From the NCBI GenBank assembly GCA_964476595.1, contig CAYZCL010000154.1:903-64902 (forward strand): 64,000 nucleotides of DNA, read 5' to 3'. Source of the stretch: an uncultured Desulfobacteraceae bacterium. GTDB lineage: Bacteria > Desulfobacterota > Desulfobacteria > Desulfobacterales > JALSRD01. Made by a program: the position numbers and the translations under genes. Of this stretch, positions 784 to 23,441 are shown piece after piece (the stretch's first letter is position 1; the number at the start of each line of letters is the position of its first letter). A model generated the notes under the pieces. It was not told the DNA's origin, ran no database searches, and saw nothing but the letters and a program-made list of their open reading frames with translations.

Positions 784-1119
784 TTTACCTCCTCCTTCGC
801 GATAAAGTGTAAAAAAATTCGGTGAACATCGCAAAACTCCCCTGCCTGTCATCACTCTTTTCCAAGTCTTCTTAAAACAAGCAAGGGATATGCCATCACA
901 GGGGGGCGGTGCCTGTCACCGCCCTGCCGAACGCGCTCTTTGTCTAAAAATAACGTTAAAACAGTTGTTTGTAATGCTGAAAGGCGGAAAAAGGGTTGGG
1001 GAATGAATTTTTCAGGCGGTCGCTTTTGACGATGCGGTCGGGGGTAATAAGTGCATTAATTTTATTGCATGAATGGTTGTCTGGGGTTTTTTTGTAATGA
1101 ATACGGCTGGATAAAAATA

Positions 1120-3500: not shown

Positions 3501-3591
3501 TACCGGGAGTCAAGAAGAACACGCATTCTGCGGGGGCGGTGAGGCCGCAGGGCCGACCGCCCCGCCGAGCACACCATAGCGGAGGAAAATA

Positions 3592-4113: not shown

Positions 4114-4251
4114 CGCCGGGATCTCATCGCCCGTGGCGTAACACGCCGTTCGGGGGGCGCCCCGCCCGAACCGAAGAGAACCTGACTGCTCACCGGGCGG
4201 CCGATACCGTTGCGGCCGCCCGCAAACCCCCAATGGGAAGGAAGATACGCC

Positions 4252-4704: not shown

Positions 4705-4773
4705 CGCTGCCGCCGATACCGGTAAAGTGCCGGACGGCGTATGGATCCTGCAGCAGTGACGGGGATGGATACC

Positions 4774-7384: not shown

Positions 7385-7432
7385 CCCGTACCGGGATCGC
7401 CGGTCAACCATTTCAATTTCTAGGAGTAGGAA

Positions 7433-10018: not shown

Positions 10019-10198
10019 CGGCCGGGGGGCGTTTTGCTTTCAACCCGCCCCCGGCACCCGCCGTTTCCCCCGGCGGCCGCGGAAGCGGCCGCCGCTTCTC
10101 GGGCCGGAAAAAGTCGTTGCCAAACCGCCGGTGCGATGCCATACTTTTGCGACTTGGTCAAACTTTGCGCTGCCCCGATTGTTTCCCGGAGTGTGAAG

Positions 10199-11125
10199 AT
10201 GGCAAAATGCATGCACCTGCTCGCGGCGCTGACGCTGCTGCTGACACTGGCCTGCAATCAGGAGGAGCCTCCCCTGAAGGTGGACCTGTCCCGCAGGGAA
10301 AAAACGGTGGTCGCACCGGACGCCGATGCTATCACTTACGCGTATCTGCCCCAGTATTCGCACACCGTTTCCTACCGGCGTCATCACCGGCTGGTGGCCT
10401 ACCTGGAACAGAAAACGGGACTCAAGATCCGCCAGATCTTTCCCGACACCTTCGACGAACACATGCAGATGGTGGGTCAGGGCGAGATCGATATCTCCTA
10501 TTCCAACCCGTTCGTCTACGTCAAGATCGCCCATCGTTACGGGGCGCGGGCCTTCTGCCGCATCGTGGAGGCCGACGGCCGCAGGGATTTCCGGGGCCAG
10601 ATCATCTGCCGCGCCGACAACGGCGCCATACGCGACATCGCCGACTGCAGGGGCAAACGCTGGATCGCGGTGGACCCCGGTTCGGCCGGGGGCTACCTCT
10701 ACCCCCTGGGACTGTTCATGGCCAACGGCATCATGCCCGCCGATTTCCGCGAGATCGCCTTTTCACCGGGACCCGGCGGCAAGCAGGAGAAGGTCGTGCT
10801 GGCCGTCTACGCCGGCAAATACGACATCGGCACCATCCGCGAGGGCACCCTGGCGGTGGTGCGCGACAAGGTGGACATCGACGAGATCCGGGTGGTGGCC
10901 AGCACTCCGCGCTATCCCGGGTGGGTGTATGCCGCGCGCGCGGGGCTGGCACCCGGTGTCGTCGAAAAGATCAAGAACGCCATGTGCGCCCTGGATTATG
11001 ACAAGGCGGCGGACCGCCGCATCCTGGCGGCCGCCAGCATGCGGGGCATCCTGCCGTGCGAAGACAGCGACTTCGATTCCGTGCGGACCCTGGCCGGGCG
11101 CGTGGGCATCGATCTCGATCGATAA
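10199..11125 (+). CDS. PhnD-like (phosphonate/phosphite ABC-type) periplasmic solute-binding lipoprotein
   Basis: Start set at ATG 10199 (MAKCMHLLAALTLLLTLAC, lipoprotein-like signal). The body (YLPQYSHTVSYRRHHRLVAYLEQKTGLKIRQIFPDTFDEHMQMVGQGEIDISYSNPFVY..., GSAGGYLYPLGLF) resembles PhnD-family binding proteins. No ABC permease or ATPase gene is adjacent. Confidence 0.8.
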   Translation: MAKCMHLLAALTLLLTLACNQEEPPLKVDLSRREKTVVAPDADAITYAYLPQYSHTVSYRRHHRLVAYLEQKTGLKIRQIFPDTFDEHMQMVGQGEIDISYSNPFVYVKIAHRYGARAFCRIVEADGRRDFRGQIICRADNGAIRDIADCRGKRWIAVDPGSAGGYLYPLGLFMANGIMPADFREIAFSPGPGGKQEKVVLAVYAGKYDIGTIREGTLAVVRDKVDIDEIRVVASTPRYPGWVYAARAGLAPGVVEKIKNAMCALDYDKAADRRILAAASMRGILPCEDSDFDSVRTLAGRVGIDLDR

Positions 11126-11127
11126 AT

Positions 11128-13188
11128 ATGAAACTCGGCTTCCGCGGTAAAATATACCTGGGCATCTTCTTCCTGCTGCTGGTCTTCGGCGTGGTGATCT
11201 TCTTTGTCGTCAGCTGGATCACGCGCGGGGCCCTGCTGGAGGAAAACCGCCGGCGCGGCGCCTCCATCGCGGTCAACCTGGCCGCCCGCGTGGCCGAACC
11301 ACTTCTGGCGGCCGACTTCCTGCGCATGAAGAACCTGGTCGATGAAACCGTGCGGCTCAGCGACGACATCTACTACGCCTTCGTGATGGATCGCGACGGC
11401 CGGGTGCTGGTCCACACCTTCAGCGGCGGCTTCCCGGTGGAACTCAAGGACGCCAACCGCCTGAAACCCGGCGAGAAAATCAGCGTGCGGCTGCTGGACA
11501 CCGGCAAGGTGAAAGTCAACGACTACGCCGTTCCGGTGCTCATCGCCGGCGACCGCTTCGGCACCGTGCGCGTCGGGTTGCTGCGCATCCGCATCGAGCA
11601 GGCCAGCGACCGTCTGCTGCTCAGCGTTTTTCTGGCCACCGGGTTCATCGTCATCCTGGCCGCTTTCGTGGGGGCCATGCTGGCGCGTCCGGTCACCCGC
11701 CGCATCCGCATCCTGCACGACTCCACCGAACAGGTGCTGCGTGGCAACCTGGACGTGCACACGGCGCCGCTGCTGAAAAAAAACTGCTGGCAGATCATGA
11801 ACTGCCGCAACGAGGCGTGTCCGGCCCACGGCGATCTGCGCCACCGCTGCTGGTACCTGGCCGGAACCATGTGCCCCTACTGCGTCGAGGGCGACTACGC
11901 CCGAAAGATCTCCAGCTGCCAGAAGTGCCCGGTCTACCGGCGCTGCTCGGGTGATGAAATCCAGTCTCTGGCCGAGAGCTTTGACTCCATGACGCTCTCG
12001 CTCAAGACCAACCTGACCGAGCTGCAGGAGGCCCAGAAACGGCTCCGGGAGCAGGGGCAGCTGCTGCGGACCATCCTGGACGCCACGCCCGATTTCGTGT
12101 GCCTTCAGGACCGCGATTCCGTGTACCTGGCGGCCAACAGGGCCTTCTGCCGCCTGGTGGGCCGCAGTGAAGCGGAGATCATCGGCCTCACCGGCCGGGA
12201 CCTGTACTCCCCCCGCCTGGCGGAGAAGTTCGCCGCCGAAGACCGCGAGATCATCCGCAGTGGCAAGACCCTGGTCAAGGAAAACCGCATTCGGCGCAAC
12301 GGCGAGCTGCGCTGGCTGCACGTCATGAAGATCCCGGTGCGCAACGCCGAGGGCCGCATCATCGGGCTGCTGTGCTCCAGCCGCGACATCACCGAGTTCA
12401 AGCGCGTCCAGCAGCAGCTGGTCCAGGCGCAGAAGATGGAGACCGTGGGGCAGCTGACGGCCGGCATCGCCCACGAGATCAACACGCCCCTGGGCATCAT
12501 CCTGGGCTATGCCCAGCTGCTGCTGGAGGATGTGCAGCCCGACAGCCAGATGCACGCCGATCTGGAGATCATCGAGCGGCAGGCCAAGATATGCCGCCGC
12601 ATCGTGGCCGACCTGCTGGCCTTCTCGCGGCACACCGAGAGCAGCACCGGACTGGTGGACATCAACCAGGCCGTCGAGGAGGTGGTGACGGTGCTGGAAC
12701 ACACCTTCGGCCTGGAGCGCATCACCATCCGACGGGATTACGGGCGGGACCTCCCGGCCGTGCGGGGCGACCGCGAAAAGATCAAGCAGGTGTTCATCAA
12801 CCTGCTCAACAACGCCCGCGACGCCATCGGCCAGGACGGTACCATTACCATCGTCACGCGCTTCGACCGTGAGGAAGGAAAGGTTCGCACCATCGTGGCC
12901 GACACAGGCGGCGGCATCGCGGCCGGGAACCTGGACCGCATCTTCGACCCCTTCTACACCACCAAGCCGGTGGACAAAGGGACCGGGCTGGGGCTGTCAG
13001 TCTCCTTCGGCATCATCAAGGAACACGGCGGCACCATCGAGGCCGAGAGCCCGCCTTCCAGAGCCACCCGGCAGGCGGCCGGCGTCGAGGCACGGGGAAC
13101 GGCCTTCATCATTCGGTTCCCGCCGGCGGCGCAGGATCGGCCGGACGGGTCGCATGAACAATCGGCAGTCGACGGCCGGGGCGGCTGA
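11128..13188 (+). CDS. Sensor histidine kinase (2 TM, extracytoplasmic sensor, HAMP with a Cys-rich insert, PAS, HisKA, HATPase)
   Basis: Start is ATG 11128, 2 nt after the upstream stop. TM helices IYLGIFFLLLVFGVVIFFVV and LLLSVFLATGFIVILAAFVGAML. PAS region LRTILDATPDFVCLQDRD. H-box AGIAHEINTPL. ATPase boxes NLLNNARDA, DTGGGI and GTGLGLS. Confidence 0.9.
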   Translation: MKLGFRGKIYLGIFFLLLVFGVVIFFVVSWITRGALLEENRRRGASIAVNLAARVAEPLLAADFLRMKNLVDETVRLSDDIYYAFVMDRDGRVLVHTFSGGFPVELKDANRLKPGEKISVRLLDTGKVKVNDYAVPVLIAGDRFGTVRVGLLRIRIEQASDRLLLSVFLATGFIVILAAFVGAMLARPVTRRIRILHDSTEQVLRGNLDVHTAPLLKKNCWQIMNCRNEACPAHGDLRHRCWYLAGTMCPYCVEGDYARKISSCQKCPVYRRCSGDEIQSLAESFDSMTLSLKTNLTELQEAQKRLREQGQLLRTILDATPDFVCLQDRDSVYLAANRAFCRLVGRSEAEIIGLTGRDLYSPRLAEKFAAEDREIIRSGKTLVKENRIRRNGELRWLHVMKIPVRNAEGRIIGLLCSSRDITEFKRVQQQLVQAQKMETVGQLTAGIAHEINTPLGIILGYAQLLLEDVQPDSQMHADLEIIERQAKICRRIVADLLAFSRHTESSTGLVDINQAVEEVVTVLEHTFGLERITIRRDYGRDLPAVRGDREKIKQVFINLLNNARDAIGQDGTITIVTRFDREEGKVRTIVADTGGGIAAGNLDRIFDPFYTTKPVDKGTGLGLSVSFGIIKEHGGTIEAESPPSRATRQAAGVEARGTAFIIRFPPAAQDRPDGSHEQSAVDGRGG

Positions 13189-13249: not shown

Positions 13250-13612
13250 ATGGCAAAAATTTTGGTCGTGGACGATGTGCAGGATGCGGTCAACCTGATC
13301 CGCCGCATCCTGGAGAAGAAGGGACATCAGGTGTTCGCCTTCACCGAGGAGGAGGATGCCCTCAACCACGCACGCCGCGAGGAGATGGACCTGGCGGTGC
13401 TGGACATCAAGCTCAAGAAGATGAGCGGCATCGAGGTGCTTGAGGAACTCAAGAAAATCACACCCACCATCCGGGCCATCATGCTCACCGGCTACCCCAC
13501 CATGGAAACCGCGCAGGAGTCTCTCAAACTGGGCGCCAACGAGTACTGCGTCAAGCCCATCGACAAGGAAGAGCTGGAGGAGAAGGTGGCCAAGGTGCTG
13601 GCCGAGGGATGA
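13250..13612 (+). CDS. Single-domain response regulator (receiver only)
   Basis: 120 aa with a CheY-like pattern: VVDD near the N-terminus, phospho-acceptor context LAVLDIKL, then IMLTG and CVKP. No output domain. Confidence 0.9.
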   Translation: MAKILVVDDVQDAVNLIRRILEKKGHQVFAFTEEEDALNHARREEMDLAVLDIKLKKMSGIEVLEELKKITPTIRAIMLTGYPTMETAQESLKLGANEYCVKPIDKEELEEKVAKVLAEG

Positions 13613-13633: not shown

Positions 13634-14707
13634 TCAAGGATGCGCCGCACAGGTGAGGTCGGCCAGGTAGTAGAAGTAGCGCTGCACGAAGCGGCCCGAA
13701 ACGACTTCCGCCAGGGGGAACACCAGGTCTTCACCACTCATGAAGCGGCCCGAAAAGGCCATGAAAACGTTGCGCGACAGCGTGGTGACCTTCTCCCCGA
13801 TGTCCAGGTGATCGACGAGGCCCGGCGGCGTGCCGTGCAGCCGGCACCGGATGGGGCGCACGTCGAAGAGCATGCAGCTTCCATTTTCGCTTAGGGGGCA
13901 GCGGATCTTCTTGCGGGCGTAGGCCTCGGCCAGCGGTTCCAGCCGGACTTTGCCGTCCCCGCCCATGTTGCGACGCAGGCCGTTGATGCGCTTGTATGCA
14001 TCGGCGGCCCTGTGGATGACTTCCGAGCGGCGGCGGGAATTGAGCGAGCGGTTCATGTTGTTGAGCAGGAAAATAGCCTCCATGAGCTGCAGCTCGAAGT
14101 AGTCGTAGCAGCAGTCCTCGTTTTCCTTTCCGCAGGCGGTCCGGGTGTCCGCAGGGGACGCTGCCGCCGCCCGGTCGATTTCCGAAAGCAGGAGGTCGAA
14201 CTCCTTGAAGTAGGCGCTCAGATCCACCACGCTGCGGCTCTCCAGCGAGGGTTCACGGATCTTGAGCTGGCCGCTCTTCTTGCCGTACTTCTTGAGCAGG
14301 CGCCACTGGCTGTAGTTGGTGGGCTTGGCGCGCGTTTTCTTCAGTTTCTTGGAGGCCACCTTCATACCCAGTCCGCGGCGGATGAGGTACGAAGTCACGA
14401 AAGTGCCTGTGCGGCCGATGCCGTGGCGGCAGTGCACCAGCACCTTCTTGCCCAGGTAGATGGCCTCGTCCAGCCACGCAAGGGCCTTTTCCATGTCTTC
14501 CATGTCCGGGGCGCATTCGTCGGGAATGGGGAGGTAGTAAACCTCGAACCCGCTCTTCTCCTCGATTTCGTGCAGGTCGCAGAACTCGCCACACAGGTTG
14601 ACGATGGCGTCGATGCCCTGGGCCTTGATGCGGTCCAGGTCGTCATAGGACATGGGGGCGTGCCCCACCGCCAGATCATCCGTTATCCAGGTCACTTCAT
14701 AAGCCAT
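13634..14707 (-). CDS. Dual-specificity (CX5R) phosphatase fused to a YkgJ/UPF0153-type Cys-rich metal-binding domain
   Basis: The N-terminal half carries the P-loop HCRHGIGRTG. The C-terminal half carries CGKENEDCC and CPLSENGSCMLFDVRPIRCRLHG, which are typical of the YkgJ Zn/Fe-chelating family. The gene starts 18 nt downstream of the dikinase-like gene on the same strand. Confidence 0.85.
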   Translation of the reverse strand: MAYEVTWITDDLAVGHAPMSYDDLDRIKAQGIDAIVNLCGEFCDLHEIEEKSGFEVYYLPIPDECAPDMEDMEKALAWLDEAIYLGKKVLVHCRHGIGRTGTFVTSYLIRRGLGMKVASKKLKKTRAKPTNYSQWRLLKKYGKKSGQLKIREPSLESRSVVDLSAYFKEFDLLLSEIDRAAAASPADTRTACGKENEDCCYDYFELQLMEAIFLLNNMNRSLNSRRRSEVIHRAADAYKRINGLRRNMGGDGKVRLEPLAEAYARKKIRCPLSENGSCMLFDVRPIRCRLHGTPPGLVDHLDIGEKVTTLSRNVFMAFSGRFMSGEDLVFPLAEVVSGRFVQRYFYYLADLTCAAHP

Positions 14708-14725
14708 GAAAGCCCCGTCCGCCTC

Positions 14726-17281
14726 CTATTCGATTTCCCCGAAGTGATACCGTCCCGCCATGAACTCCTCCACGTAGCCATCGATGGGGTCGTCACCCCT
14801 GAGGTACATGTCCATCAGCCGCGTGGCGCCCAGCAGCCGGCCGAGCATGTCCAGCCGGTTCTCCAGCCGATCACGGGAAACGTTCTTGATTTCGGCGTCC
14901 ACCAGGTCCCCCTTCTTCTGGACGTCGAACCCCAGCCGGTCCAGCACCCCCGTGATGAAATCGGCGCGTCGGCTGCGCCCGTCGAAGTCGCCCCCGCCGC
15001 CGGTGAAGCGGAACAGCACGTAGTTGTCCGCCTTCCGGTCGCCGCACACGGTGTCCACGATCACGAAGTGGTAGCCGAATTTCAGGTTGAGGTTCAGGTA
15101 GTCGTCGGACACGATGGCGTAGCTGGCCAGCAGCGCGGAGTTTTTGCTGATCATGCCGCCGCCCATGGCGATGTTGTCGAACTGGTCCCAGTCGAAGTGA
15201 CTGAAGCCCGACCAGTGGATGTCTGGGTGGCTGAGTCCTTTCCACAGGGCCCGCATGGGGGCGCTCCGGATTTCATCGGGCCCGATCTCCTTTTTTTCCG
15301 GCCCCGTCGACGCCAGCCCGCCGCCGACGTCCAGCATGTAGAAGAGCATGGGGATGTGGGAGACGAATTTCTTGGTATTCCGGGTCTTGCGGGGGCTGCG
15401 GTTGCCCAGCGAGAACATCTCCTGGACGGCCTTTTCGTGGGAAAAGCGGATGATGTCGTGCAGCGAGCGGCAGTTCTCGGGCGTGAAATCCGGGGATTCC
15501 GGGTCCACCAGGCGCAGCGGCGAAATGAAACTGATGATGTACGACAGGCGGCGTGTCAGGGGGCTGTCGGCGGTCAGGTCCCGGCGCGCGCAGGCCTCTC
15601 CCATCAGTTCCGTCACCAGGCCTGCGTAGATTCGGCCGGCGTCGGCGTGCACCGTGACCTGCATGCCCGTTTCGAGCCGCTCCAGCGCTTCGCCGATGTT
15701 GACCACCATGGGCACGCCGAATTCCCTGGCCACCGAGGCGAAGTGCCCGGCACTGCTGCCGGTGGCGGTCACCACGGCGCTGACGCGGTCCAGCACCTTG
15801 ACATAGTGCGGCGAGGCGTTGCGGGCTGCGAAGACACAGCCTTCCGGCAGGTCGGCCAGGCTCTCTCCCTGGCGGTGGCGGTACACGCGCCCGGCGCCCA
15901 CCCCCGAAGACGCCCGCAGGCCGCCCTCGACGATCACCGGGTTTTCGGGTTCGATCAGGGCGCACTCGTCCGCACTGTCGGCCGGGCTGTCGGGGGCCAG
16001 CGGCCGGGACTGCAGGATGTACAGTGAACCCTGCCGGTCGGTGCACCACTCCACGTCCTGCGGTGCGTCGTAATAGTCTTCCAGCCGACGCCCCCATTGC
16101 GCCAGTTGAAGCACCTGCTCCGGCGAGAGGCTGGCCTCCCGCGCCTCTTGCGGCGCGACCGCCTCGACCGCCGTGGTGCCGTCGGCACGGGCCGTGAACC
16201 GCCGGGTCTTCTCGGCGATTTCCTGCGCGGTGATGCGGAAAGGCTCCTCGCGGCTCACGTGGAAGATGTCCGGCGAGGTTTCGCCGCTGACCAGCAGTTC
16301 CCCGAGGCCCCAGATGGCGTGAATGGCCAGGTGCTCTCCCTGTCCGCCGTCGCGTGCCAGGGTGTACATGACCCCGCTGGCGGCGGCGTCGACCATCTCC
16401 AAGATCAGCACCGCCATGGGGGTCTCGAAATCCGCCAGGCCGTAGTTGACGCGGTAGAAGATGGAACTGGCCGTGTACTTGCTGGCGATCACCTGCCGGT
16501 AGGCCGCCAGCAGGTTCTCGGGCCGCACGTTGAGCACCGTCCGGTACTGTCCGGCGAAGGACGACTGCGTGTCTTCGGCCACCGCGGAGCTGCGCACCGC
16601 CAGCCGCACCGGCCGCCCGGTGGGCCAGATGGTTTCCATGCGCTCCCGGATCTCTTCCGCAACTTCCTCCGGCACTTCGGCTTCCAGGACCAGGCGGCTG
16701 AGCTCTTCGGACGTGCCCTCCAGCGATTCGTCCGAGTGGATGTCCAGTCGCGACAGGCGCTCCTGGATGATCTCTCGCAGCCCGTTGTACTCCAGCAGGT
16801 AGTTGAAGGCGTTGGTGGTGATGACGAAACCCGGTGCGGTGGGCAGGCCCAGTCCGTTTTTCACCTGGGCCAGGTGGAAGGCCTTGCCGCCTGCGATCTG
16901 CCCGGCATCCTCGGGAAGGTCTTCCAGCGCCAGCGTAAAGGGCGGCGCAAACTCGAAGGGCGGCGGCGCCAGCATGAAGCGGATGTAGAAGTCGAACTTG
17001 CGGAAGTAGTCCCTCAGGTTGACGTAGCGGGCGCCCGACAGCAGGTCCAGGTCTTCGATGATGCGGGCCACGCACGCCGACAGTTCCTCGTACTTGCGGA
17101 TGATCACCTCCAGGTCCACCCGCTCGTGGTCGTAGTGCATGTGTTCGATATCGGCGATCAGCTCATGGGCCCGTTTATCGTTGGCCAGCAGCGACTTGAA
17201 AGCCTCGTATTTTTTGCGCAGAACCGTGCCGGGAAAGAAGACCTGGTAGGTCCAGTGCTTGAACAGATTTTTAAGATACAT
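14726..17281 (-). CDS. PEP-utilising-enzyme family dikinase-like protein (PpsA/PPDK-type ATP-grasp plus swivel phosphohistidine domain, unknown N- and C-terminal domains)
   Basis: 851 aa. ATP-grasp region motifs: GGKAFHLAQV and VRSSAVAEDTQSSFAGQY. Mobile His domain: TATGSSAGHFASVAREFGVPMVVNI. I do not recognise about 130 aa at the N-terminus or about 290 aa at the C-terminus. Confidence 0.85.
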   Translation of the reverse strand: MYLKNLFKHWTYQVFFPGTVLRKKYEAFKSLLANDKRAHELIADIEHMHYDHERVDLEVIIRKYEELSACVARIIEDLDLLSGARYVNLRDYFRKFDFYIRFMLAPPPFEFAPPFTLALEDLPEDAGQIAGGKAFHLAQVKNGLGLPTAPGFVITTNAFNYLLEYNGLREIIQERLSRLDIHSDESLEGTSEELSRLVLEAEVPEEVAEEIRERMETIWPTGRPVRLAVRSSAVAEDTQSSFAGQYRTVLNVRPENLLAAYRQVIASKYTASSIFYRVNYGLADFETPMAVLILEMVDAAASGVMYTLARDGGQGEHLAIHAIWGLGELLVSGETSPDIFHVSREEPFRITAQEIAEKTRRFTARADGTTAVEAVAPQEAREASLSPEQVLQLAQWGRRLEDYYDAPQDVEWCTDRQGSLYILQSRPLAPDSPADSADECALIEPENPVIVEGGLRASSGVGAGRVYRHRQGESLADLPEGCVFAARNASPHYVKVLDRVSAVVTATGSSAGHFASVAREFGVPMVVNIGEALERLETGMQVTVHADAGRIYAGLVTELMGEACARRDLTADSPLTRRLSYIISFISPLRLVDPESPDFTPENCRSLHDIIRFSHEKAVQEMFSLGNRSPRKTRNTKKFVSHIPMLFYMLDVGGGLASTGPEKKEIGPDEIRSAPMRALWKGLSHPDIHWSGFSHFDWDQFDNIAMGGGMISKNSALLASYAIVSDDYLNLNLKFGYHFVIVDTVCGDRKADNYVLFRFTGGGGDFDGRSRRADFITGVLDRLGFDVQKKGDLVDAEIKNVSRDRLENRLDMLGRLLGATRLMDMYLRGDDPIDGYVEEFMAGRYHFGEIE

Positions 17282-17510
17282 CTTTCACTCCTGCCGGCCG
17301 CCGCGCTTTTCGGGCCGTTGCCCGAGGCCGTCCGGAAGTTTCACCGGGTGGCATTCGCTGATTGCACCCAGTGTAATCAGAAAAGCCCGAACTTTCAACC
17401 CAAGTTATCGCCTTCCCGCCCGGTGTGATTCACCCGGAGGAGTCCGTGTGTTCGCCACTGTTCAGGAACTTTTCCAAACGGCGACTGGGAACGGCGGGGC
17501 TGATTTCCAA

Positions 17511-17622: not shown

Positions 17623-18072
17623 ATGCCGAGCATTCTTCCCTACATGCTGCTGGCCGTGGTGGCCGGCTTTTGCCTGCCCACCCAGGCCGGCATCAACTCC
17701 CAACTGAACCTGTGGACTCGTTCCCCGGTGCTGGCCGCTGCCATTTCCTTTGCGGTGGGAACGGCCGTGCTGGTCCTTTTTGCCCTGGTGGCCCGTATTC
17801 CGCTGCCGGCCGGAGAGGAGGTCTCGCAACACCCGTGGTGGATATGGATCGGCGGTTTCGTGGGCGCCTTTTACGTGGGTTCCACCATCGTGCTGGCGCC
17901 CCGGCTGGGGGCCGCTTCCATGGTGTCCACGGTGGTAGCCGGACAGATGATCGCCTCGCTGGTGCTGGATCACTACGGTCTGATCGGCTACAGCGTGCAC
18001 CCGGTGAGCTGGCTGCGGGTGATGGGGGTGCTGCTGCTGGTGGGAGGAGTGGTAATGATCCGGGTGTTTTGA
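17623..18072 (+). CDS. DMT-superfamily small membrane protein (YdcZ/DUF606-like)
   Basis: 149 aa and strongly hydrophobic with about 5 TM helices. The N-terminal QAGINSQL context is typical of DUF606. Confidence 0.75.
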   Translation: MPSILPYMLLAVVAGFCLPTQAGINSQLNLWTRSPVLAAAISFAVGTAVLVLFALVARIPLPAGEEVSQHPWWIWIGGFVGAFYVGSTIVLAPRLGAASMVSTVVAGQMIASLVLDHYGLIGYSVHPVSWLRVMGVLLLVGGVVMIRVF

Positions 18073-18137: not shown

Positions 18138-19379
18138 CTATTTTTCGTTGGCCGACTGCAGGATGCAGTGCAACAGAACATTGGCGCCGGCCTCGCAGTC
18201 TTCCCAGCGGGTGTTTTCCACTTCCACGTGGCTGCGGCCGCCGATGCTGGGTACGAAGATCATGGCCGTCGGCGCGACTTGGTTCATGTAGCTGGCGTCA
18301 TGGCCTGCGCCGCTGACCATGTACAGGCTGGGGTAATCCAAGGCCTCGGCCGTGTCCAGCACGCGCTGCACCAGTCTTTCGTCAAAAGGTGAGTGCTCCA
18401 CGCGCCAGGTTTCCTCGATGCGGATGGGGCAGCCCCGGCGTCGCGCGATGACCTCGAAATCGGACCTGAGCTTTTCCCAGGCGTCGATGGCCAGATCGTC
18501 GTCCCACGAACGAATGTCCACCGTGAAGTGCACCTTGTCCGGGATGATGTTGCGCGAGTTGGGGTGGTTCTGGATCTCTCCCACCGTGGCCACCATGTTG
18601 CCGCCCATGCGGGCCGGAAGCTCGTTGACTTTCAGTATCATCTCGGCGGCGGCGCACAGGGCGTCGTGGCGCCCCTCCATGGGCGTGGGGCCCACCTGGT
18701 TGGCCTCGCCCTCCAGATAGACGTCGTACCAGTGCAGGCAAAGGATGCCCTTGGGTGCACCGATGATCTTGCCCTCGCGCTCCAGGATGGGGCCCTGCTC
18801 GATGTGGTATTCGTAGTAGGCGTGTACCGGCCATTTTCGGGCCGGCACGTCCCCCTTGTAGCCGATGCGGATGAGCTCGTCTTCGAAGCGCTTGCCGTTG
18901 ATGTCGGTGCGGTCGTAGGCCCAGTCGCGGTCCAAGGCACCGGCCCAGACTCCCGAAGACACCATCGCCGGGGCGAAACGCGAACCCTCCTCGTTGGTCC
19001 AGTCCACGATGTCGATGGGCCGCTCGGTCTCGATGCCGTGGTCGTGCAGGGTGCGCAGCACCTCGAGCGCCCCCATGACTCCCAGGATGCCGTCGAAGCG
19101 GCCGCCCTTGGGTTGTGAGTCGATGTGCGACCCGCTCATTACAGGGGCCAGGTCGTTGCTGCGCCCCTTACGGCGACCGAAGATGTTGCCCATCTCGTCG
19201 ATGGTGACTTTGAGGTCCAGTTCTTTCAGCCAGCTGACGAAGAGATCTCGCGCCTGCTTATCCTCGTCAGTCAGGGTCAGCCGCTGTACGCCCCCGCCGG
19301 GGGTAGCCCCGATCTTGGCCATTTCCTCCAAGGTGCCGCGCAGCCGCCGACCGTCGACTCTCAGGTCTTTCCGTTCCAT
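18138..19379 (-). CDS. M20-family Zn amidohydrolase (N-carbamoyl-L-amino-acid / allantoate / beta-ureidopropionase type, AmaB-like)
   Basis: 413 aa. Motifs SGSHIDSQPKGGRFDG, NEEGSRF and GAGHDA. It is the last gene of the preT-preA-dihydropyrimidinase operon. Confidence 0.85.
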   Translation of the reverse strand: MERKDLRVDGRRLRGTLEEMAKIGATPGGGVQRLTLTDEDKQARDLFVSWLKELDLKVTIDEMGNIFGRRKGRSNDLAPVMSGSHIDSQPKGGRFDGILGVMGALEVLRTLHDHGIETERPIDIVDWTNEEGSRFAPAMVSSGVWAGALDRDWAYDRTDINGKRFEDELIRIGYKGDVPARKWPVHAYYEYHIEQGPILEREGKIIGAPKGILCLHWYDVYLEGEANQVGPTPMEGRHDALCAAAEMILKVNELPARMGGNMVATVGEIQNHPNSRNIIPDKVHFTVDIRSWDDDLAIDAWEKLRSDFEVIARRRGCPIRIEETWRVEHSPFDERLVQRVLDTAEALDYPSLYMVSGAGHDASYMNQVAPTAMIFVPSIGGRSHVEVENTRWEDCEAGANVLLHCILQSANEK

Positions 19380-19394
19380 GGGTTCACCTCTTTT

Positions 19395-20786
19395 CTAGAA
19401 TCCCTCGAAGGGCTCTCGCTTGACGAAGCGGCCGCGGCCGACCTCGCCCACGAATTCCATCTGTTCGCCGTTCCAGCGGGCCACCTTTTTACCGCGGGAG
19501 TAGACCAGGTGCGGCATGCCCGTGATCTCGAAGCCCTCAAAAGGCGTGTAGTCCACGTTCATGTGCAACCTGCTCTGGGTGATGGTGAACTTCTGCTGCG
19601 GGTCGAAGACCACGATGTCGGCGTCCTTGCCCACGGCGATCTCGCCCTTGTCTTTCAGGCCGAACATGCGCGCCGTGCCGGTGCACAGCACGTCCACCAT
19701 GCGCTCCAGGCTGATGCGGCCCTTGACGACACCCTCGGAGTGCAGCAGGATCAACAGGGTTTCAATGCCCGGCGCGCCGTTGGGGATCTTCTTGTAGTCG
19801 TCCTTGCCGAACATGTCCTTCTTGCCGACAAAGTCGAACGGGCAGTGGTCGGTGGCCACCACCTGCAGGTCGCCGCCCTTGAGGCCCTGCCACAGAGCGG
19901 CGTTGCTCTCGGCGGTGCGCAGCGGCGGCGACATGACGTACTTGGCGCCGGCAAAATCCGGCTCCTTGTAGCGCTCCTCGTCGAGCAGCAGGTACTGCGG
20001 GCAGGTCTCGGCAAATACGTCGATGCCGCGGTCGCGGGCTTCCTTGACTTTCCACAGGCCCTCCTTGGAGGACAGGTGCACGATGTAGATACGCGAACCG
20101 GTCAGCTCCACCATCTTGGCGGCACGGGCGATGGCCTCCTCCTCGGCGATATTGGGGCGGCTGACGGCGTGGTAGTAGGGCGCCAGCTTGCCCTCTTTTG
20201 CGAGCACCTCGTTCATGTGCTGGATGATGTAGACGTTTTCGGCGTGCACCTGCACCAAGCCGCCGTACTTCTTGGTCTCTTCCAGCAGCTTGATCATGGT
20301 GGCGTCGTCCACGCGGAAATCGTACACCATGAAGATCTTGAAGCTCGGCGTGCCGTATTCCAGGCAGGCCTTCTTGACCTCCTCGATGACGTCCGGGCGG
20401 GGGTCCATGACCGCCGGGTGCAGCGAGTAATCCACCGCGGCCTTGCCTTCGGCCCAGGATTTCTTGCGCTCGATGGCCTCCAACAGGGTCTCGCCCTTCT
20501 GCTGCAGGTCGAAATCCACCACCGTGGTCACCCCGCCGCAGGCCGCGGCGATGGTGCCGGTCTCGTAGTCGTCCTGGGCGTGGGTGCCCATGAAGGGCAT
20601 GGAGATGTGGGTGTGCGGGTCGATGGCGCCGGGCAGGATGTACTTGCCGGTAGCGTCGACGACCTCGTCGGCCGGGACGTCCAGGTTGCTGCCGATGGCC
20701 GTGATGCGGTCCCCCTCGGCGTAGACATCGGCGGTGATGCGGCCGGTGGTGCTGACAATGGTGCCTCCCTTAAACAGTACACTCAT
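19395..20786 (-). CDS. Dihydropyrimidinase / D-hydantoinase (cyclic amidohydrolase)
   Basis: 463 aa. Metal site GAIDPHTH, carboxylated-Lys context SFKIFMVY, and VHAEN. The overall sequence is hydantoinase-like. The start overlaps the preA stop by 17 nt. Confidence 0.9.
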   Translation of the reverse strand: MSVLFKGGTIVSTTGRITADVYAEGDRITAIGSNLDVPADEVVDATGKYILPGAIDPHTHISMPFMGTHAQDDYETGTIAAACGGVTTVVDFDLQQKGETLLEAIERKKSWAEGKAAVDYSLHPAVMDPRPDVIEEVKKACLEYGTPSFKIFMVYDFRVDDATMIKLLEETKKYGGLVQVHAENVYIIQHMNEVLAKEGKLAPYYHAVSRPNIAEEEAIARAAKMVELTGSRIYIVHLSSKEGLWKVKEARDRGIDVFAETCPQYLLLDEERYKEPDFAGAKYVMSPPLRTAESNAALWQGLKGGDLQVVATDHCPFDFVGKKDMFGKDDYKKIPNGAPGIETLLILLHSEGVVKGRISLERMVDVLCTGTARMFGLKDKGEIAVGKDADIVVFDPQQKFTITQSRLHMNVDYTPFEGFEITGMPHLVYSRGKKVARWNGEQMEFVGEVGRGRFVKREPFEGF

Positions 20787-22080
20787 TTGGCCCCTCCTTT
20801 GTAAACGGCTCGTATTTGATCTCCTTTTCCAAGCTTGGGTCCATGACCGGCGTTTCGTTGCGCCGCCAGCCCCGCGGCATGGCCTTGTAAGTGATCAGGT
20901 CGGTTACCGGGCAGACGAACTGGCACAGCATGCAGCTCAGGCACTTGTTCTCGTCCAGGACGGGACGTCGCTGATCCCCGTCCCAGGTAAGGGCCTGTCC
21001 GGCGGCGTCACGGCAGACGACGTAGCACTGGCCGCAGCCGATGCAGCGGTCCACATCGTACTGTGTAATCCCCTGCCTTTCAAGGTCGAAGTGGTCGGTC
21101 TCGTGCAGGTGGGGCAGGGCCTTGCCCACCAGTTCGGCAACGCTGTGCACTCCCTTGCGGGCCATGTAATCGCCGAGGCCTTCGATCATATCCTCCACGA
21201 TGCCGTAGCCGTAGTGCATGATGCCGGTGGTTACCTGGATCGTGGAGCTGCCCACCAGGATGTACTCCAGAGCGTCGATCCAGGTCTCGATGCCGCCGAT
21301 ACCCGACAGCGGCAGACCCAGTTCCAGACACTTTGCCATGGAGGCGATGAAGTTCAGCCCGATGGGCTTGACGGCCGGCCCCGAGGTGCCGCTGATGGCA
21401 CCCTTGCCGAACACGTTGGGCCGCGGCACGAAGTCGTCGAGCCCGATTTCCGAGATGCCGCGTACCGTGTTGATGGCACTGATGGCGTCGGCGCCGCCCT
21501 TTTTGGCATACAGCGCCGGTTCGGTCATGTCGGTGATGTTGGGCGTCATCTTGGCCATCACCGGGATGGAGACGTTCTTTTTGACCGCTTCGGTGAAGCG
21601 CTCCAGCAGGTGAAAGGCTTGGCCCACCTTGTGGCCGGCACCCTCGATGCACATGTGGGGGCACGAGAAATTGAGCTCCAGCATGTCGGCCCCGTTGTCT
21701 TCGGCCACCTTGGCCAGGTACACCCACTCGTCCTCGAAGAAGCCCATGATGCTGGCGATGATGCGGTGGTCGGGGTAATGCTTCTTGAGGTACAGGATGT
21801 CGATCAGGTTGTCCTTGAGGGGGCGGTCGGAGATCTGTTCGACGTTCTGCACGGCCATCTCTTTCTTGCTGCCGTAGTGCACGCAGTGCATGCGCGGCGA
21901 GGGGTGGATGATGGGCAGACGGTCTGAGTTGAGCGTCTTGAAAACCACGCCGCTCCAGCCGGCCTCGAAGGCGCGGGCCACCATCTCAGCCGAGTTGGAG
22001 ACCGGCGAGGAGGACAGCAGGAACGGGTTGGTGAAAGTGATGCCGCAAAAATTTACGGATAGATCGATATTGTTAGCCAC
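20770..22080 (-). CDS. preA: NAD-dependent dihydropyrimidine dehydrogenase, PreA-like subunit (DHODH-like barrel plus 2x[4Fe-4S])
   Basis: 436 aa. Active-site context NFSCPHM in a DHOD-like barrel. C-terminal motifs CIGCGQCYVVC and CLSCMLCQFVCP. Confidence 0.85.
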   Translation of the reverse strand: MANNIDLSVNFCGITFTNPFLLSSSPVSNSAEMVARAFEAGWSGVVFKTLNSDRLPIIHPSPRMHCVHYGSKKEMAVQNVEQISDRPLKDNLIDILYLKKHYPDHRIIASIMGFFEDEWVYLAKVAEDNGADMLELNFSCPHMCIEGAGHKVGQAFHLLERFTEAVKKNVSIPVMAKMTPNITDMTEPALYAKKGGADAISAINTVRGISEIGLDDFVPRPNVFGKGAISGTSGPAVKPIGLNFIASMAKCLELGLPLSGIGGIETWIDALEYILVGSSTIQVTTGIMHYGYGIVEDMIEGLGDYMARKGVHSVAELVGKALPHLHETDHFDLERQGITQYDVDRCIGCGQCYVVCRDAAGQALTWDGDQRRPVLDENKCLSCMLCQFVCPVTDLITYKAMPRGWRRNETPVMDPSLEKEIKYEPFTKEGPNECTV

Positions 22081-22091
22081 CGGGATTCCTC

Positions 22092-23441
22092 CTATTGGGT
22101 CAGATAGTCTTTAATGGCGCGGGCGGCCACCTTGCCGTCCTGTACGGCCTGGACCACCAGGGCCGGACCGCGCACGATGTCGCCGCCGGCGAAAATGCCC
22201 TCTACCGAGGTTTTACCGGTGTCCGGGTCCACCTCGATAAGCCGGCGGTCGTTCAGCTTGACACGTGGGTACCAGGCCGGAGAGTCATCGGGTGCCTGAT
22301 TGCCGATGGCTTCGACCACCAGGTCGGCGGGCAGCACCCACTCCGAGCCCTCGATAGCCTCGGGGCGGCGGCGGCCCGAATCATCGGGTTGGCCCAGGCG
22401 TGTGCGCACCAGTTTGAGCCCGCTGATGCGGTCCCCGTCGGCTACATAGTCGACGGGTTGGTTGAGCAGCAGGAAGTGCACACCCGCCTCCTGGGCCTCG
22501 ACGCGTTCATCGGGTTCGGCCGGCATCTGGGCATAGGAGCGGCGGTAGACCAGGTAGACATCGGCAGCCCCCAGACGGGCGGCAGCGCCGATGCAGTCCA
22601 TGGCTACCGATCCCCCGCCGATGACGGCCACGGTTTTGCCGCCCACAGTGTCCCTCATTTGCGCGAAACGTCCATCGCGCAGCGCGGCCAGGAAATCCAC
22701 CGATGACCACAGCCCCTTCAGGGCCGGGCGCTTTTCTTTCAGGCTGGCGGCCTGCCATAGCCCCGGCGCCAGGAAAACAGCACTGTAGCCGCTGGCCAGC
22801 AGTTTTTCGGCGTCGTTTTGTCCGTTGACCGGACTGTTGCACTTGAATTCCACCCCCAGGGCGCGCACGTCGTCGAGCTCGCGGTTCAGGAAGCCAAGGC
22901 TGCAGCGGTAGGACACCACGCCGTAACGCAGCACGCCGCCGGGCTCCGGACGAGCCTCGAAAATGGTCACGCCGAAGCCTTCCCTGGCCAGTTCGGCCGC
23001 ACAGCTCAGGCCCGCTGGCCCCGAGCCCACCACGGCGATTTTTTGCGGCCGTGGGGCACCCTTTTCCAGCACCTGGATTCCCTGGTGCCAGGCGTACTCC
23101 ACCAGGAATCGCTGAATTTTGCCGATGGCGATGGGGCGGTCGGCGCCCTCGGGGCGATCCTGTGACTTGAACATGGCGCTGCATTTTTCCTCACACAACC
23201 GTGCCGTGGGGCACAGCACCCCGCAGGCGCCCCCCAAAATGTTGTTCTGCTTGATGGTACGCACCGCACCGGTGATGTTTTTAAAACGCAGCTTGCGAAT
23301 GAAACGGCCCGGGTCGGTGTCGGCCGGGCAACCGGCCGAGCAGGGTGCGTCGTGGCACAACAGGCAGCGGTCGGCCTCGGCGATGGCCTGGGCCAGATCG
23401 AAGCCTTTCTCCATGGGTTCGAAATCATCGGGTTTGCTCAA
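22092..23441 (-). CDS. preT: NAD-dependent dihydropyrimidine dehydrogenase, PreT-like subunit (GltD-like)
   Basis: 449 aa. Fe-S motifs CLLCHDAPC..CP and GACGVLCPTARLCEEKC. Dinucleotide folds IAVVGSGPAGLSCA and VAVIGGGSVAMDC. Confidence 0.85.
   Translation of the reverse strand: MSKPDDFEPMEKGFDLAQAIAEADRCLLCHDAPCSAGCPADTDPGRFIRKLRFKNITGAVRTIKQNNILGGACGVLCPTARLCEEKCSAMFKSQDRPEGADRPIAIGKIQRFLVEYAWHQGIQVLEKGAPRPQKIAVVGSGPAGLSCAAELAREGFGVTIFEARPEPGGVLRYGVVSYRCSLGFLNRELDDVRALGVEFKCNSPVNGQNDAEKLLASGYSAVFLAPGLWQAASLKEKRPALKGLWSSVDFLAALRDGRFAQMRDTVGGKTVAVIGGGSVAMDCIGAAARLGAADVYLVYRRSYAQMPAEPDERVEAQEAGVHFLLLNQPVDYVADGDRISGLKLVRTRLGQPDDSGRRRPEAIEGSEWVLPADLVVEAIGNQAPDDSPAWYPRVKLNDRRLIEVDPDTGKTSVEGIFAGGDIVRGPALVVQAVQDGKVAARAIKDYLTQ

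Follow-up and report, generated by a model that had tools for sequence, protein, structure and literature searches.

The best-described counterpart of the locus reported here is the Desulfovibrio 'nitrate cluster' (DVU0251-DVU0245 and Dde_0597-Dde_0605; Korte et al. 2014, Front Microbiol 5:153, PMC4001038). Its genes encode, in order, a TauE-like permease, a hypothetical protein, a PtxB/PhnD-like binding protein, a HAMP/PAS histidine kinase, a receiver-only regulator, a protein with PPDK_N and mobile domains, and a dual-specificity phosphatase (DSP). Transposon mutants of strains DvH and G20 in the TauE, binding-protein, receiver and dikinase genes are nitrate-resistant, whereas transposon and deletion mutants of the DvH phosphatase gene, DVU0245, are still nitrate-sensitive (PMC4001038). 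In G20 pools, unlike in DvH, the phosphatase mutant also gained fitness (+2.08), and G20 cluster mutants were mildly sick on thiosulfate (PMC4001038). The study is confined to phenotypes; biochemistry, an analysis of the domains at the dikinase C-terminus and any comment on conservation are absent from it.

We analysed a 64,000-nucleotide stretch of DNA from an uncultured Desulfobacteraceae bacterium (the window). As a sequence-only reading had described, it contains a two-gene pair encoding proteins of 851 and 357 aa, with an 18-nt gap between the ORFs (Table 1). A GGAGG overlaps the dikinase stop codon, and the promoter match upstream agrees at 9 of 12 positions, with one site found against 0.5 expected. 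The exact dikinase and phosphatase sequences occur in public assemblies within 90%-identity clusters of nine and six members, respectively. We consider it reasonably probable that the two proteins are an antagonistic kinase and phosphatase forming the output of a signalling cluster that is conserved in sulfate-reducing Desulfobacterota. The best reading of the whole, which we favour with some reserve, is a reversible phospho-switch under two-component control and linked to sulfur-oxyanion transport.

Table 1. Features of the locus, in window coordinates
Feature	Position	Strand	Evidence or remark
Long TauE-type permease gene, 5' part	1..915	-	phmmer E 9e-51 to the long TauE of locus L032; cut by the window edge
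PhnD/PtxB-type periplasmic oxyanion-binding protein	10034..11125	+	PF12974, E 2.1e-59
Sensor histidine kinase: sCache_3_2, HAMP with two-CW 8-Cys insert, PAS, HisKA, HATPase	11056..13188	+	Pfam
Two-CW 8-Cys insert in histidine kinase HAMP	~11785..11946	+	
Stand-alone response-regulator receiver, 120 aa	13250..13612	+	PF00072, E 1.4e-27; convergent with phosphatase gene
Phosphatase, 357 aa	13634..14707	-	ORF
Cys6 C-terminal domain of phosphatase, aa 160-357	13637..14230	-	Six invariant Cys and RP284-285
Dual-specificity/PTP-type phosphatase domain, aa 1-150	14258..14707	-	Tc-R-P, PTP-SAK and DSPc matches
Phosphatase Cys93 codon	14429..14431	-	CX5R loop
Dikinase-like protein, 851 aa	14726..17281	-	ORF, whole gene with stop codon; Pfam PPDK_N and PEP-utilizers
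C-terminal domain, aa 563-851, presumed acceptor/phosphotransfer station	14729..15595	-	No Pfam match; model fold alpha/beta
Swivel phospho-His domain, aa 478-549	15635..15850	-	PF00391 PEP-utilizers, E 1.8e-17
Catalytic His513 codon	15743..15745	-	Alignment with PpsA 8a8e
ATP-grasp nucleotide-binding domain, aa 129-433	15983..16897	-	PF01326 PPDK_N, E 1.8e-83
N-domain, aa 1-125, family-specific four-long-helix bundle	16907..17281	-	AF2 model; conserved across loci
Sigma-70-like promoter match, weak evidence	17370..17398	-	Upstream of dikinase gene; TTGAAA-17-TACACT

In PpsA, PPDK and rifampicin phosphotransferase (RPH), the beta-phosphate of ATP is passed to a His on a swivel domain and AMP and Pi are released. 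The 851-aa protein is predicted to be a dikinase-like enzyme without the pyruvate domain and, with 1504 family clusters at 50% identity, appears to represent a widespread His-swivel dikinase type. The AF2 model of the whole protein reaches pLDDT 90.4 and pTM 0.88. Both catalytic domains proposed earlier were recovered by Pfam; His513 of the swivel aligns to the PpsA (8a8e) catalytic His and does not vary among 110 family members, nor do G131, K133, R230, S231, S232, E236, E411 and Q424 of the ATP-grasp domain. Foldseek matched the latter to PpsA 2ols and to the ATP-binding domain of RPH, 5hv6 (TM 0.88 on target). No PEP/pyruvate TIM barrel was detected with Pfam or NCBIfam equivalogs, and PEP synthase equivalog models aligned only via model positions 8-467 of 798, reaching 324 bits where the cut-off is 598.

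The flanking regions, already suspected to be unrecognised, proved to be so: residues 1-128 and 564-851 have no Pfam match even at E<=10, and the N-domain has none in NCBIfam. In the model, N-domain helices span residues 2-15, 17-50, 57-82 and 88-104; the domain is kept across loci by phmmer. The C-domain (~290 aa) of the model has an alpha/beta fold containing an antiparallel sheet and is no TIM barrel. Its family profile matched no PDB sequence, and a Foldseek search of the PDB, one of the checks suggested by the sequence-only reading, matched no known fold (best E 0.007, TM <=0.24). With D609, R612, H615, H738, G761, G762, R772 and D824 invariant in the 110 members, it is presumed to be a new acceptor domain.

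An ATP-grasp domain ~30% identical to that of RPH and structurally close to it, in the part that the RPH equivalog matches, recalls xenobiotic or antibiotic inactivation in the manner of RPH or flavonoid phosphate synthetase. We regard this as the least probable reading. The domain order is grasp-swivel-C, with a central rather than C-terminal swivel, and not grasp-substrate-swivel; the RPH equivalog reaches 241 bits against a cut-off of 999; and the C-domain has no Foldseek match to the RPH substrate domain. A dedicated phosphatase would moreover undo any resistance, and the cluster is chromosomal and conserved alongside sensors, outside any resistance context.

The partner has the CX5R loop HCRHGIGRTG and a DSPc score of 53.5 bits (Pfam cut-off 33.5), with C93, R99 and D63 invariant among relatives; its nearest solved relatives are archaeal PTPs and DUSP23 (E 1e-16 to 5e-9). 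Behind the phosphatase domain lies a tail with the motif C-x6-CC ... C-x7-C-x5-RP-x2-C, whose six invariant Cys are C192, C199, C200, C270, C278 and C288. The tail had been described as a CxxCxxCC-type YkgJ domain. It is indeed Cys-rich, but the literal CxxCxxCC motif is absent, PF03692 (YkgJ-type) misses the window protein and matches 10 of 39 relatives weakly (best E 0.014), and hhalign against E. coli YkgJ aligned the second motif alone, with a probability of 1.2%. The YkgJ assignment is thus weakly supported, and the tail may possibly form a YkgJ-like metal or Fe-S site. This motif and this label are the parts of the earlier description that were not confirmed as given; the ORFs, the ATP-grasp and swivel domains, the missing TIM barrel and the CX5R phosphatase were.

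The pairing itself is well preserved. In 75 of 77 related loci the gene that immediately follows the dikinase gene on the same strand encodes a DSP phosphatase, and single-polypeptide dikinase-DSP-Cys6 fusions were found (P0294, P0321), so the absence of conserved co-occurrence, which would have counted against the pair, is decisively contradicted. In a sister subfamily an unrelated Cys-phosphatase, LMW-PTP, is encoded upstream (L084, L092) or fused (P0362), a non-homologous replacement of the partner. About a quarter of the phosphatase-bearing loci (18/76) are DSP-only, without a Cys6 tail. Comparative data therefore support a genuine functional pair, which appears to be conserved across hundreds of sulfate-reducing bacteria. 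Against the switch, an adjacent phosphatase occurs in just ~4 of 13 loci of the ConA-like sister subfamily, whose members carry a C-terminal ConA-like/LamG jelly-roll extension (weak Pfam matches PF21708, 26.3 bits, and PF13385).

That extension, together with the resemblance of a dikinase-DSP pair to plant glucan water dikinase (GWD) with SEX4, could point to reversible phosphorylation of a glucan or other polymer, following the logic of GWD with SEX4/LSF2 or of laforin. We hold this to be very improbable. Pfam finds a carbohydrate-binding module in neither window protein, glycogen or starch genes are not among the 25 most conserved neighbour families, and the DSP has its nearest relatives in archaeal PTPs and DUSP23 rather than in laforin or SEX4. 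The jelly-roll is a generic domain, present in many secreted stand-alone proteins as well; the module is linked with a two-component system and TauE, and the published phenotype is about anions (PMC4001038). Of the interpretation offered before, then, the pyruvate-domain-less dikinase, the novel end regions and the functional pair are supported, and the glucan and rifampicin analogies are not.

The pair is the distal part of a conserved binding protein/histidine kinase/receiver module, often with a TauE permease. The binding protein likely starts near 10199, at the signal-peptide-like stretch MAKCMHLLAALTLLLTLAC, and the histidine kinase likely at the ATG at 11128. The eight Cys of the kinase insert are 100% conserved across 33 orthologues, and the window kinase scores 36.4 bits with NCBIfam two_CW_domain (cut-off 35). 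Among 40 loci that have a Cys6 domain and extend 5 kb or more downstream, receiver orthologues (E<1e-35) are present in 37 and histidine kinase orthologues (E<1e-150) in 29; among 13 loci without the domain, in three and none, respectively. The binding protein has orthologues in 29 Cys6 loci and in no DSP-only locus. Cys6 presence thus co-varies with the two-component genes. Gene order varies while this linkage persists: L039 has dikinase-kinase-receiver-phosphatase, and L028, L029 and L175 have kinase-receiver-dikinase-phosphatase, with 2-nt gaps or overlaps and the receiver directly upstream of the dikinase. Of 82 loci, 19 have a long-TauE orthologue; among the 31 loci that are 18 kb or longer, 12 have a TauE-type gene of any kind. 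The permease may be the effector of the module; its presence within 10 kb in just ~40% of long loci counts against the switch. Other recurrent neighbours are a cytoplasmic molybdopterin oxidoreductase and Fe-S proteins. Neither the wider module nor the published cluster had been picked up by the sequence-only reading.

These same neighbours, with TauE, would also suit metabolic activation, in which the dikinase would phosphorylate a small anion imported by TauE, or another sulfur-oxyanion metabolite, as PpsA does with pyruvate. Nitrate sensitivity would then arise from uptake or misuse of nitrate, for example in an ATP-wasting side reaction, the phosphatase would serve for correction or salvage, and the role of the two-component system would be limited to adjusting activity. 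The characterised relatives PpsA, PPDK, RPH, PigC and RedH all use small molecules or glucans, the invariant Asp, His, Arg and Gly set of the C-domain looks enzyme-like, and the G20 mutants have a growth defect on thiosulfate (PMC4001038). Nevertheless, this reading is unlikely, if the strongest competitor. With a bulk metabolite as substrate, a kinase and phosphatase fused in one polypeptide would run a futile cycle, and no enzyme that could go on to use a phosphorylated product is conserved beside the pair. Both families that supply the partner phosphatases are classic protein-phosphatase families, the linkage with a stand-alone receiver is tight, and some family members could not make any product at all.

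Those members form a whole lineage, in Dissulfurimicrobium and relatives, in which the N- and C-domains are fused without ATP-grasp or swivel; it keeps the phosphatase and the stand-alone receiver, accompanied by an NtrC-type regulator and a kinase. Its persistence counts against the kinase/phosphatase switch and suggests a C-domain role without need for a swivel His in cis. It would fit a phosphorelay station, with the N+C unit as phospho-acceptor (for example at invariant His615 in the motif RF-x-HE, H615-E616 lying on the long helix 607-627) exchanging phosphate with the stand-alone receiver and/or the NtrC-type regulator, in the manner of Spo0B. ATP-driven input would come from the ATP-grasp and swivel, and the phosphatase would drain the relay; LMW-PTP relatives are known to hydrolyse P-N bonds (phospho-arginine). 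We nonetheless consider a relay improbable: hhalign of the C-domain, its helix region and the N-domain against histidine-kinase DHp/CA cores gave probabilities <1%, Foldseek matches of the C-domain to DesK had a probability of 0.07-0.18 and TM <=0.15, the DSP-only loci mostly lack a receiver, and we know of no DSP that hydrolyses phospho-His.

In the phospho-switch that we prefer, the dikinase would bind ATP in the ATP-grasp domain, transfer the beta-phosphate to His513 and release AMP and Pi, as the conserved catalytic residues and PpsA/PPDK/RPH chemistry suggest. The swivel would ferry the phosphate to the C-domain, whose invariant Asp/Arg/His/Gly-rich site would stand in for the pyruvate TIM barrel, and there it would be handed to the acceptor; the phosphatase would strip it off again through Cys93, Arg99 and Asp63. 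With the kinase adding and the phosphatase removing, the pair would set the phosphorylation level of one target. The balance would be controlled from the oxyanion-binding protein through the sCache/two-CW/PAS histidine kinase to the stand-alone receiver, probably via protein contacts with the Cys6 domain or the dikinase N-domain; co-variation is what points to this control, receiver contact included. The phosphorylated state would turn on a pathway including the TauE-type permease, probably for thiosulfate or sulfite-type anions, as the published Desulfovibrio genetics suggests (PMC4001038). Sensitive DVU0245 mutants beside resistant kinase mutants are the pattern expected of an ON kinase and an OFF phosphatase; the gain of the G20 phosphatase mutant counts against it. 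Our preferred candidate acceptors are a protein, which could be the dikinase itself or part of the permease pathway, or a small molecule dedicated to signalling; bulk metabolites, glucans and antibiotics rank below these. Against a protein stands the fact that all substrates defined biochemically in the superfamily are small molecules or glucans.

Compared with known systems, the window module has the gene families of the nitrate cluster, with the same content and order. A Desulfovibrionaceae contig with the nitrate-cluster layout encodes a clear orthologue of each window protein, and the novel C-domain and the two-CW insert are present there too (Pseudodesulfovibrio: C-domain 2e-73, histidine kinase 5e-191, receiver 2e-53, DSP 4e-77). 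The nitrate cluster is one operon headed by TauE, whereas in the window the binding-protein, kinase and receiver genes converge with the pair and TauE lies 9 kb off, past a molybdopterin-oxidoreductase operon. Gene content and order and the Desulfovibrionaceae intermediate, rather than the DVU0246/DVU0245 sequences, argue for orthology. With PpsA/PPDK (EC 2.7.9.2 / 2.7.9.1) the dikinase shares the ATP-grasp-then-swivel order and conserved catalytic residues, but it has an unrelated alpha/beta domain in place of the TIM barrel and an extra 4-helix N-domain, and scores under the equivalog cut-offs. A precedent for a PPDK-derived regulatory kinase without pyruvate domain is VadK (Rv1127c) of Mycobacterium tuberculosis, which autophosphorylates on its swivel His and acts as a regulator, not a metabolic enzyme (PMC13400623). 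The available text of that source describes ATP-binding and phospho-transfer His domains only and makes no mention of further domains at the N- or C-terminus, of a phosphatase partner or of a link to a two-component system; VadK is of a different branch, NCBIfam PRK05878 matching only residues 451-591 of the window dikinase. RPH, PigC and RedH have homologous ATP-grasp and swivel-His chemistry; in RPH, however, the swivel is C-terminal and the substrate domain central, and no phosphatase partner is known. GWD with SEX4/LSF2, and laforin, share the general idea of setting a DSP-family phosphatase against a His-swivel dikinase, whereas the window pair has a signalling context and neither carbohydrate-binding modules nor glucan-metabolism neighbours. 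The archaeal-type PTPs (Tk-PTP 5z59, SsoPTP 2i6i) and human DUSP23 have the CX5R loop and upstream Asp in common with the window phosphatase, which differs by its fused 200-aa Cys6 domain and its dedication to a dikinase.

Both enzymes of the pair keep their catalytic residues. Pfam placed PPDK_N (PF01326) at residues 129-433 of the dikinase (E 1.8e-83) and the PEP-utilizers swivel domain (PF00391) at residues 478-549 (E 1.8e-17). The PEP/pyruvate TIM barrel (PF02896) was absent even at E ≤ 10, so that the sequence-only reading of an ATP-grasp and swivel dikinase lacking a TIM barrel holds. In an alignment to PpsA (structure 8a8e), His513 of the swivel falls on the catalytic His; it and the ATP-grasp residues K133, R230, S231, S232, E236, E411 and Q424 do not vary across 110 diverse relatives. 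PEP synthase equivalog models gave 313-324 bits against cut-offs of 598-740 and covered the first 467 of ~790 positions; NF005057, for example, reached 324.5 bits (cut-off 598) over model positions 8-467 of 798 only. Likewise, Foldseek aligned 465 columns of the full-length model with PpsA 2ols and no more. A conventional PEP synthase is ruled out by the missing TIM barrel and the sub-cut-off equivalog scores. A GGAGG sequence overlaps the dikinase stop codon, ahead of the phosphatase gene. No sigma-54 promoter was found upstream of the dikinase gene (window-wide matches were fewer than expected by chance), and Rfam and tRNA scans of the whole window returned no match.

Positions of the gene pair, the adjoining sensor module and the reduced N+C-only relatives (window positions unless a locus is named)
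Feature	Position	Strand	Remarks
TauE-type permease gene	1..915	-	window starts inside the gene
PhnD/PtxB-type binding protein	10034..11125		convergent with the pair
Histidine kinase (sCache_3_2, HAMP, PAS, HisKA, HATPase)	11056..13188	+	convergent with the pair; Pfam
Two-CW insert of the kinase	11785..11946	+	eight invariant Cys, between two HAMP helices
Stand-alone receiver	13250..13612		convergent with the pair; Pfam
Phosphatase ORF, 357 aa	13634..14707	-	18 nt downstream of dikinase ORF
Dikinase ORF, 851 aa	14726..17281	-	co-directional with phosphatase ORF
N+C-only protein, L001	8001..9182		
N+C-only protein, L171	8915..10087		
N+C-only protein, L173	7275..8576		

The phosphatase belongs to the dual-specificity branch of the PTP superfamily, with an HCX5R(S/T) loop, a general-acid Asp upstream of it and a DSPc score of 53.5 bits (Pfam cut-off 33.5). 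Its P-loop reads HCRHGIGRTG; C93, R99, T100 and D63 are invariant among relatives, and the closest solved structures are archaeal PTPs and DUSP23. The CX5R phosphatase proposed earlier from the sequence therefore stands, but the CxxCxxCC motif attributed to its tail is absent. Six Cys of the 200-aa tail (Cys6) are invariant and follow the pattern C-x6-CC ... C-x7-C-x5-RP-x2-C, in which C-x6-CC takes the place of the first motif and the second YkgJ-type motif (C...C...RP..C) is found. PF03692 (YkgJ/UPF0153) did not match the window phosphatase or its tail and was matched weakly by 10 of 39 phosphatase relatives (best E 0.014); hhalign against E. coli YkgJ gave a probability of 1.2%. Canonical CxxCxxCC proteins were not found in the 1.3 Mb of loci examined, and some phosphatase relatives are labelled 'Fe-S-cluster containing protein' in JGI annotation. 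The YkgJ label is unproven.

The two flanking regions of the dikinase (residues 1-128 and 564-851) had been called unrecognised, and neither gave a Pfam match even at E ≤ 10. An AlphaFold2 model of the full-length protein, built on a 110-sequence alignment (pLDDT 90.4, pTM 0.88), depicts the N-domain as four long helices in a bundle and the C-domain as one long helix leading into an antiparallel, helix-containing beta-meander, not a TIM barrel. The full-length model matched PpsA, RPH (rifampicin phosphotransferase), HpeI and PPDK via the ATP-grasp and swivel domains only. With the C-domain model alone, Foldseek returned nothing below E 0.001 from the PDB (best TM 0.24), with weak matches to RecJ/DHH, YbjN-like, C-Ala and DesK structures, and the family profile found nothing below E 0.3 among PDB sequences. 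Kinship of the C-domain to a known fold was thus not borne out by either search, and it has no detectable kin among solved structures. An HPt/DHp-like unit in the N- or C-domain was also rejected, with hhalign probabilities below 1% against 61 histidine-kinase cores. The C-domain does have an invariant polar set (D609, R612, H615, H738, G761, G762, R772 and D824), a pattern that looks like a catalytic or ligand site. Its motifs read CRSLHDIIRF-x-HE, FGYHF, GGGGD-x2-GR and LGRLL-x-TRLMDM.

The dikinase family comprises 1504 clusters at 50% identity in an exhaustive HMM search, which was the source of the full-length relatives (a word-indexed search gave only proteins of at most 503 aa). When genomes were scanned with the C-domain alignment, at least 572 at species level proved to encode a relative, nearly all of them Desulfobacterota. 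Pairing was counted by running phmmer with the window domains on the six-frame ORFs from 82 loci. Of the 77 loci with room for a DSP (dual-specificity phosphatase) gene, 75 have one immediately downstream and co-directional, and 76 have one somewhere at the locus. Co-occurrence, the check that might have refuted the pairing, instead shows dikinase and phosphatase to be an obligate pair in the main family. In the proteins P0294 and P0321, dikinase, DSP and Cys6 form a single polypeptide. On the long-read-style contig of locus L002 (6917..9479), the dikinase appears as two overlapping gene calls (366 aa and 492 aa), probably an assembly frameshift and not a real split. P0080, a C-domain relative, has PF02954 and PF18024 (Fis-type HTH) beside its swivel domain, which could reflect fusion to the C-terminus of a sigma-54 activator or chimerism in the gene call.

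A sister dikinase subfamily (P0328, P0362 and relatives; loci L083-L089 and L091-L104) carries a 200-aa ConA/LamG-like jelly-roll C-terminal extension. An unrelated Cys-phosphatase, LMW-PTP, is encoded directly upstream in L084 and L092 and is fused N-terminally to the dikinase in P0362; one member (L087) has a DSP downstream. Phosphatase pairing is facultative in this subfamily (~4 of 13 loci). Both the fusions and the exchange of one phosphatase fold for another speak for a phosphatase that acts on the dikinase product or on the dikinase itself. The ConA-like extension was considered as a clue to a glycan substrate and set aside, since the domain is generic, being frequent also in stand-alone secreted proteins from soil metagenomes (L106-L170), and since pairing is limited to those few loci.

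The pair belongs to a larger system than the first reading saw, and its genes are linked with those for a sensor kinase and for a receiver without an output domain. In the window, a HisKA/HATPase kinase gene and a receiver gene, both recognised by Pfam, adjoin each other as a two-component system. Receivers and kinases were counted where a locus had 5 kb or more of downstream sequence, and binding proteins at all loci. An orthologous receiver occurs at 37 of 40 loci with a Cys6-tailed phosphatase and at 3 of 13 without the tail; the corresponding counts for an orthologous kinase are 29 of 40 and 0 of 13, and a binding protein occurs at 29 loci with the tail and at none without it. Gene order varies from convergent to HK-RR-DIK-PHO (kinase, receiver, dikinase, phosphatase; L028, L029 and L175) and DIK-HK-RR-PHO (L039). 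Linkage that outlasts such reshuffling marks out a functional unit. Of the 82 loci, 19 have a long TauE-type permease orthologue within 10 kb; among the 31 loci spanning 18 kb or more, 12 have a TauE-type gene of any kind. The conserved neighbors of the pair are the kinase, receiver, binding protein, TauE and a Mo-oxidoreductase. The kinase insert, with two CW motifs, scored 36.4 bits against the NCBIfam two-CW domain (cut-off 35) and could be a cytoplasmic metal or redox sensor; our literature search found no publication on this domain. The true start of the kinase is most likely the ATG at 11128, 2 nt past the binding-protein stop, instead of 11056, and that of the binding protein is most likely near 10199, at the signal-peptide-like MAKCMHLLAALTLLLTLAC, instead of 10034.

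Several other gene groups lie in the window. An operon-like redox row (1416..9595, +) encodes a 694-aa molybdopterin oxidoreductase, a Fer4_11 subunit, NuoE-like and NuoF-like proteins, a 2Fe-2S/4Fe-4S protein and a 720-aa GltD-like Fer4_20/Pyr_redox_2 protein; at L001, L058 and L171-L175, too, genes for a molybdopterin oxidoreductase and Fer4_11 are found close to the module. A reductive pyrimidine-degradation-like set (18138..23441, -) includes PreT-like Fer4_20/Pyr_redox_2 and PreA-like DHO_dh + 4Fe-4S proteins, a dihydropyrimidinase-like amidohydrolase and a carbamoylase-like M20 peptidase, with a YdcZ-type membrane protein gene (17623..18072) divergent from it. At 27851..32177 (-), an 886-aa CHASE2 hybrid histidine kinase is encoded beside a 551-aa LysM/FecR-domain protein. 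GC content is 52-54% across the 28-34 kb stretch against ~63%, and this region may have been acquired separately.

All gene families of the poorly annotated 'nitrate cluster' of Desulfovibrio vulgaris Hildenborough (DvH; DVU0251-0245) and D. alaskensis G20 (Dde_0597-0605), described by Korte et al. 2014 (PMC4001038), are present around the window pair. The published order is a TauE-like permease, a hypothetical protein, a PtxB-like binding protein, a HAMP/PAS kinase, a receiver-only regulator, a 'pyruvate phosphate dikinase / mobile domain / ATP-grasp' protein and a dual-specificity phosphatase (PMC4001038). A Pseudodesulfovibrio-type (Desulfovibrionaceae) contig has the same order (TauE, hypothetical, binding protein, two-CW kinase, receiver, 820-aa dikinase, DSP-Cys6), and its proteins match those of the window in the C-domain (2e-73), kinase (5e-191), receiver (2e-53) and DSP (4e-77); the dikinase-DSP pair also occurs in a Desulfovibrionales MAG. 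Judged by the published gene list and this intermediate, the window module probably corresponds to the nitrate cluster. Strong fitness gains in 100-150 mM nitrate, but not in nitrite, came with insertions in the genes for the permease, the binding protein, the receiver and the dikinase, and DvH isolates mutated in DVU0246, 0247, 0250 and 0251 grew unimpeded in nitrate (PMC4001038). Transposon and deletion mutants of the DVU0245 phosphatase were still nitrate-sensitive; a complication is that the phosphatase mutant, too, showed a fitness gain in G20 pools (PMC4001038). These genetics place dikinase, receiver and permease in one pathway, with the DvH phosphatase mutant opposite in behavior (PMC4001038). 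G20 cluster mutants were mildly sick on thiosulfate; as a guess, the authors proposed a leaky thiosulfate transporter, without committing themselves to a native function (PMC4001038). Our search for later papers on DVU0245-0251 found none. Across characterized dikinase-phosphatase pairs, the two-CW domain and follow-up of DVU0245-0251, it returned Korte et al. 2014 and a report on VadK (Rv1127c of Mycobacterium tuberculosis; PMC13400623) only.

Reduced forms of the dikinase bear on what the C-domain does. In Dissulfurimicrobium hydrothermale and relatives, the N- and C-domains are directly fused, ATP-grasp and swivel are absent and the C-domain motifs are intact; P0330 consists of N-domain, swivel and C-domain only. 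Because the N+C-only lineage lacks ATP-grasp and swivel, the C-domain has a role independent of a swivel in cis. The N+C unit may on this account act as a relay or receptor: the lineage persists in a conserved setting (YjbQ, N+C protein, DSP-Cys6, receiver, NtrC-type regulator, hypothetical protein, kinase, molybdopterin oxidoreductase), although profile comparison with kinase DHp/CA cores gave this function no support.

The system is a His-swivel dikinase kind with a new putative acceptor domain, a dedicated but interchangeable Cys-phosphatase and two-component control. In the mechanism that we propose, the ATP beta-phosphate would be transferred onto His513 with release of AMP and Pi, and the swivel would carry it to the C-domain site and on to the acceptor. 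The DSP would undo acceptor phosphorylation, and the receiver would set the kinase/phosphatase balance, possibly via the co-varying Cys6 tail. The phosphorylated state would enable the TauE-linked anion pathway. As the acceptor we favor a signaling target, be it a protein or a small molecule dedicated to the purpose, since fusing kinase to phosphatase would make a futile cycle of a bulk metabolite, the two families of partner phosphatase are both classic protein phosphatases, and no enzyme using a phosphorylated product is found among the conserved neighbors. More tentatively, and with the odds in our judgment against it, the pair would be a PEP-synthase-fold signaling kinase with a dedicated Cys-phosphatase eraser, acting on a protein (itself, the TauE pathway or a receiver) or making a new phosphorylated messenger, as the enzymatic output of a two-component system without a DNA-binding regulator, and would amount to a new bacterial phospho-switch. 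If so, the switch would gate sulfur-oxyanion transport post-translationally in sulfate reducers and would use a previously undescribed acceptor domain and two Cys-cluster sensor modules (two-CW and Cys6). The family is large and nearly confined to sulfate- and sulfur-cycling Desulfobacterota, and its only functional data are the Desulfovibrio nitrate-resistance phenotypes, which were unexplained in 2014 and bear on nitrate treatment of oil-field souring. Domain anatomy and conservation together yield a testable mechanism, running from sensor to receiver, to dikinase ON and phosphatase OFF, and to the anion permease.

Two analogies raised by the sequence-only reading fare poorly. Likeness to glucan water dikinase and its glucan phosphatases is not supported, as neither window protein has a Pfam match to a carbohydrate-binding module and the conserved neighbors are not glucan-related. 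RPH is built of ATP-grasp, a central substrate domain and a C-terminal swivel, whereas the swivel of the dikinase is central (478-549 of 851); the RPH equivalog NF041857 reached 241.5 bits against a cut-off of 999, and Foldseek detected no RPH likeness in the C-domain. PEP synthase shares the ATP-grasp and the central swivel with its catalytic His, but has a C-terminal TIM barrel where the dikinase has none. VadK provides a precedent as a PPDK-derived regulatory kinase (PMC13400623). Should the acceptor be a protein or a messenger, the His-swivel dikinase scaffold would, beside VadK, be extended from metabolism to signaling.
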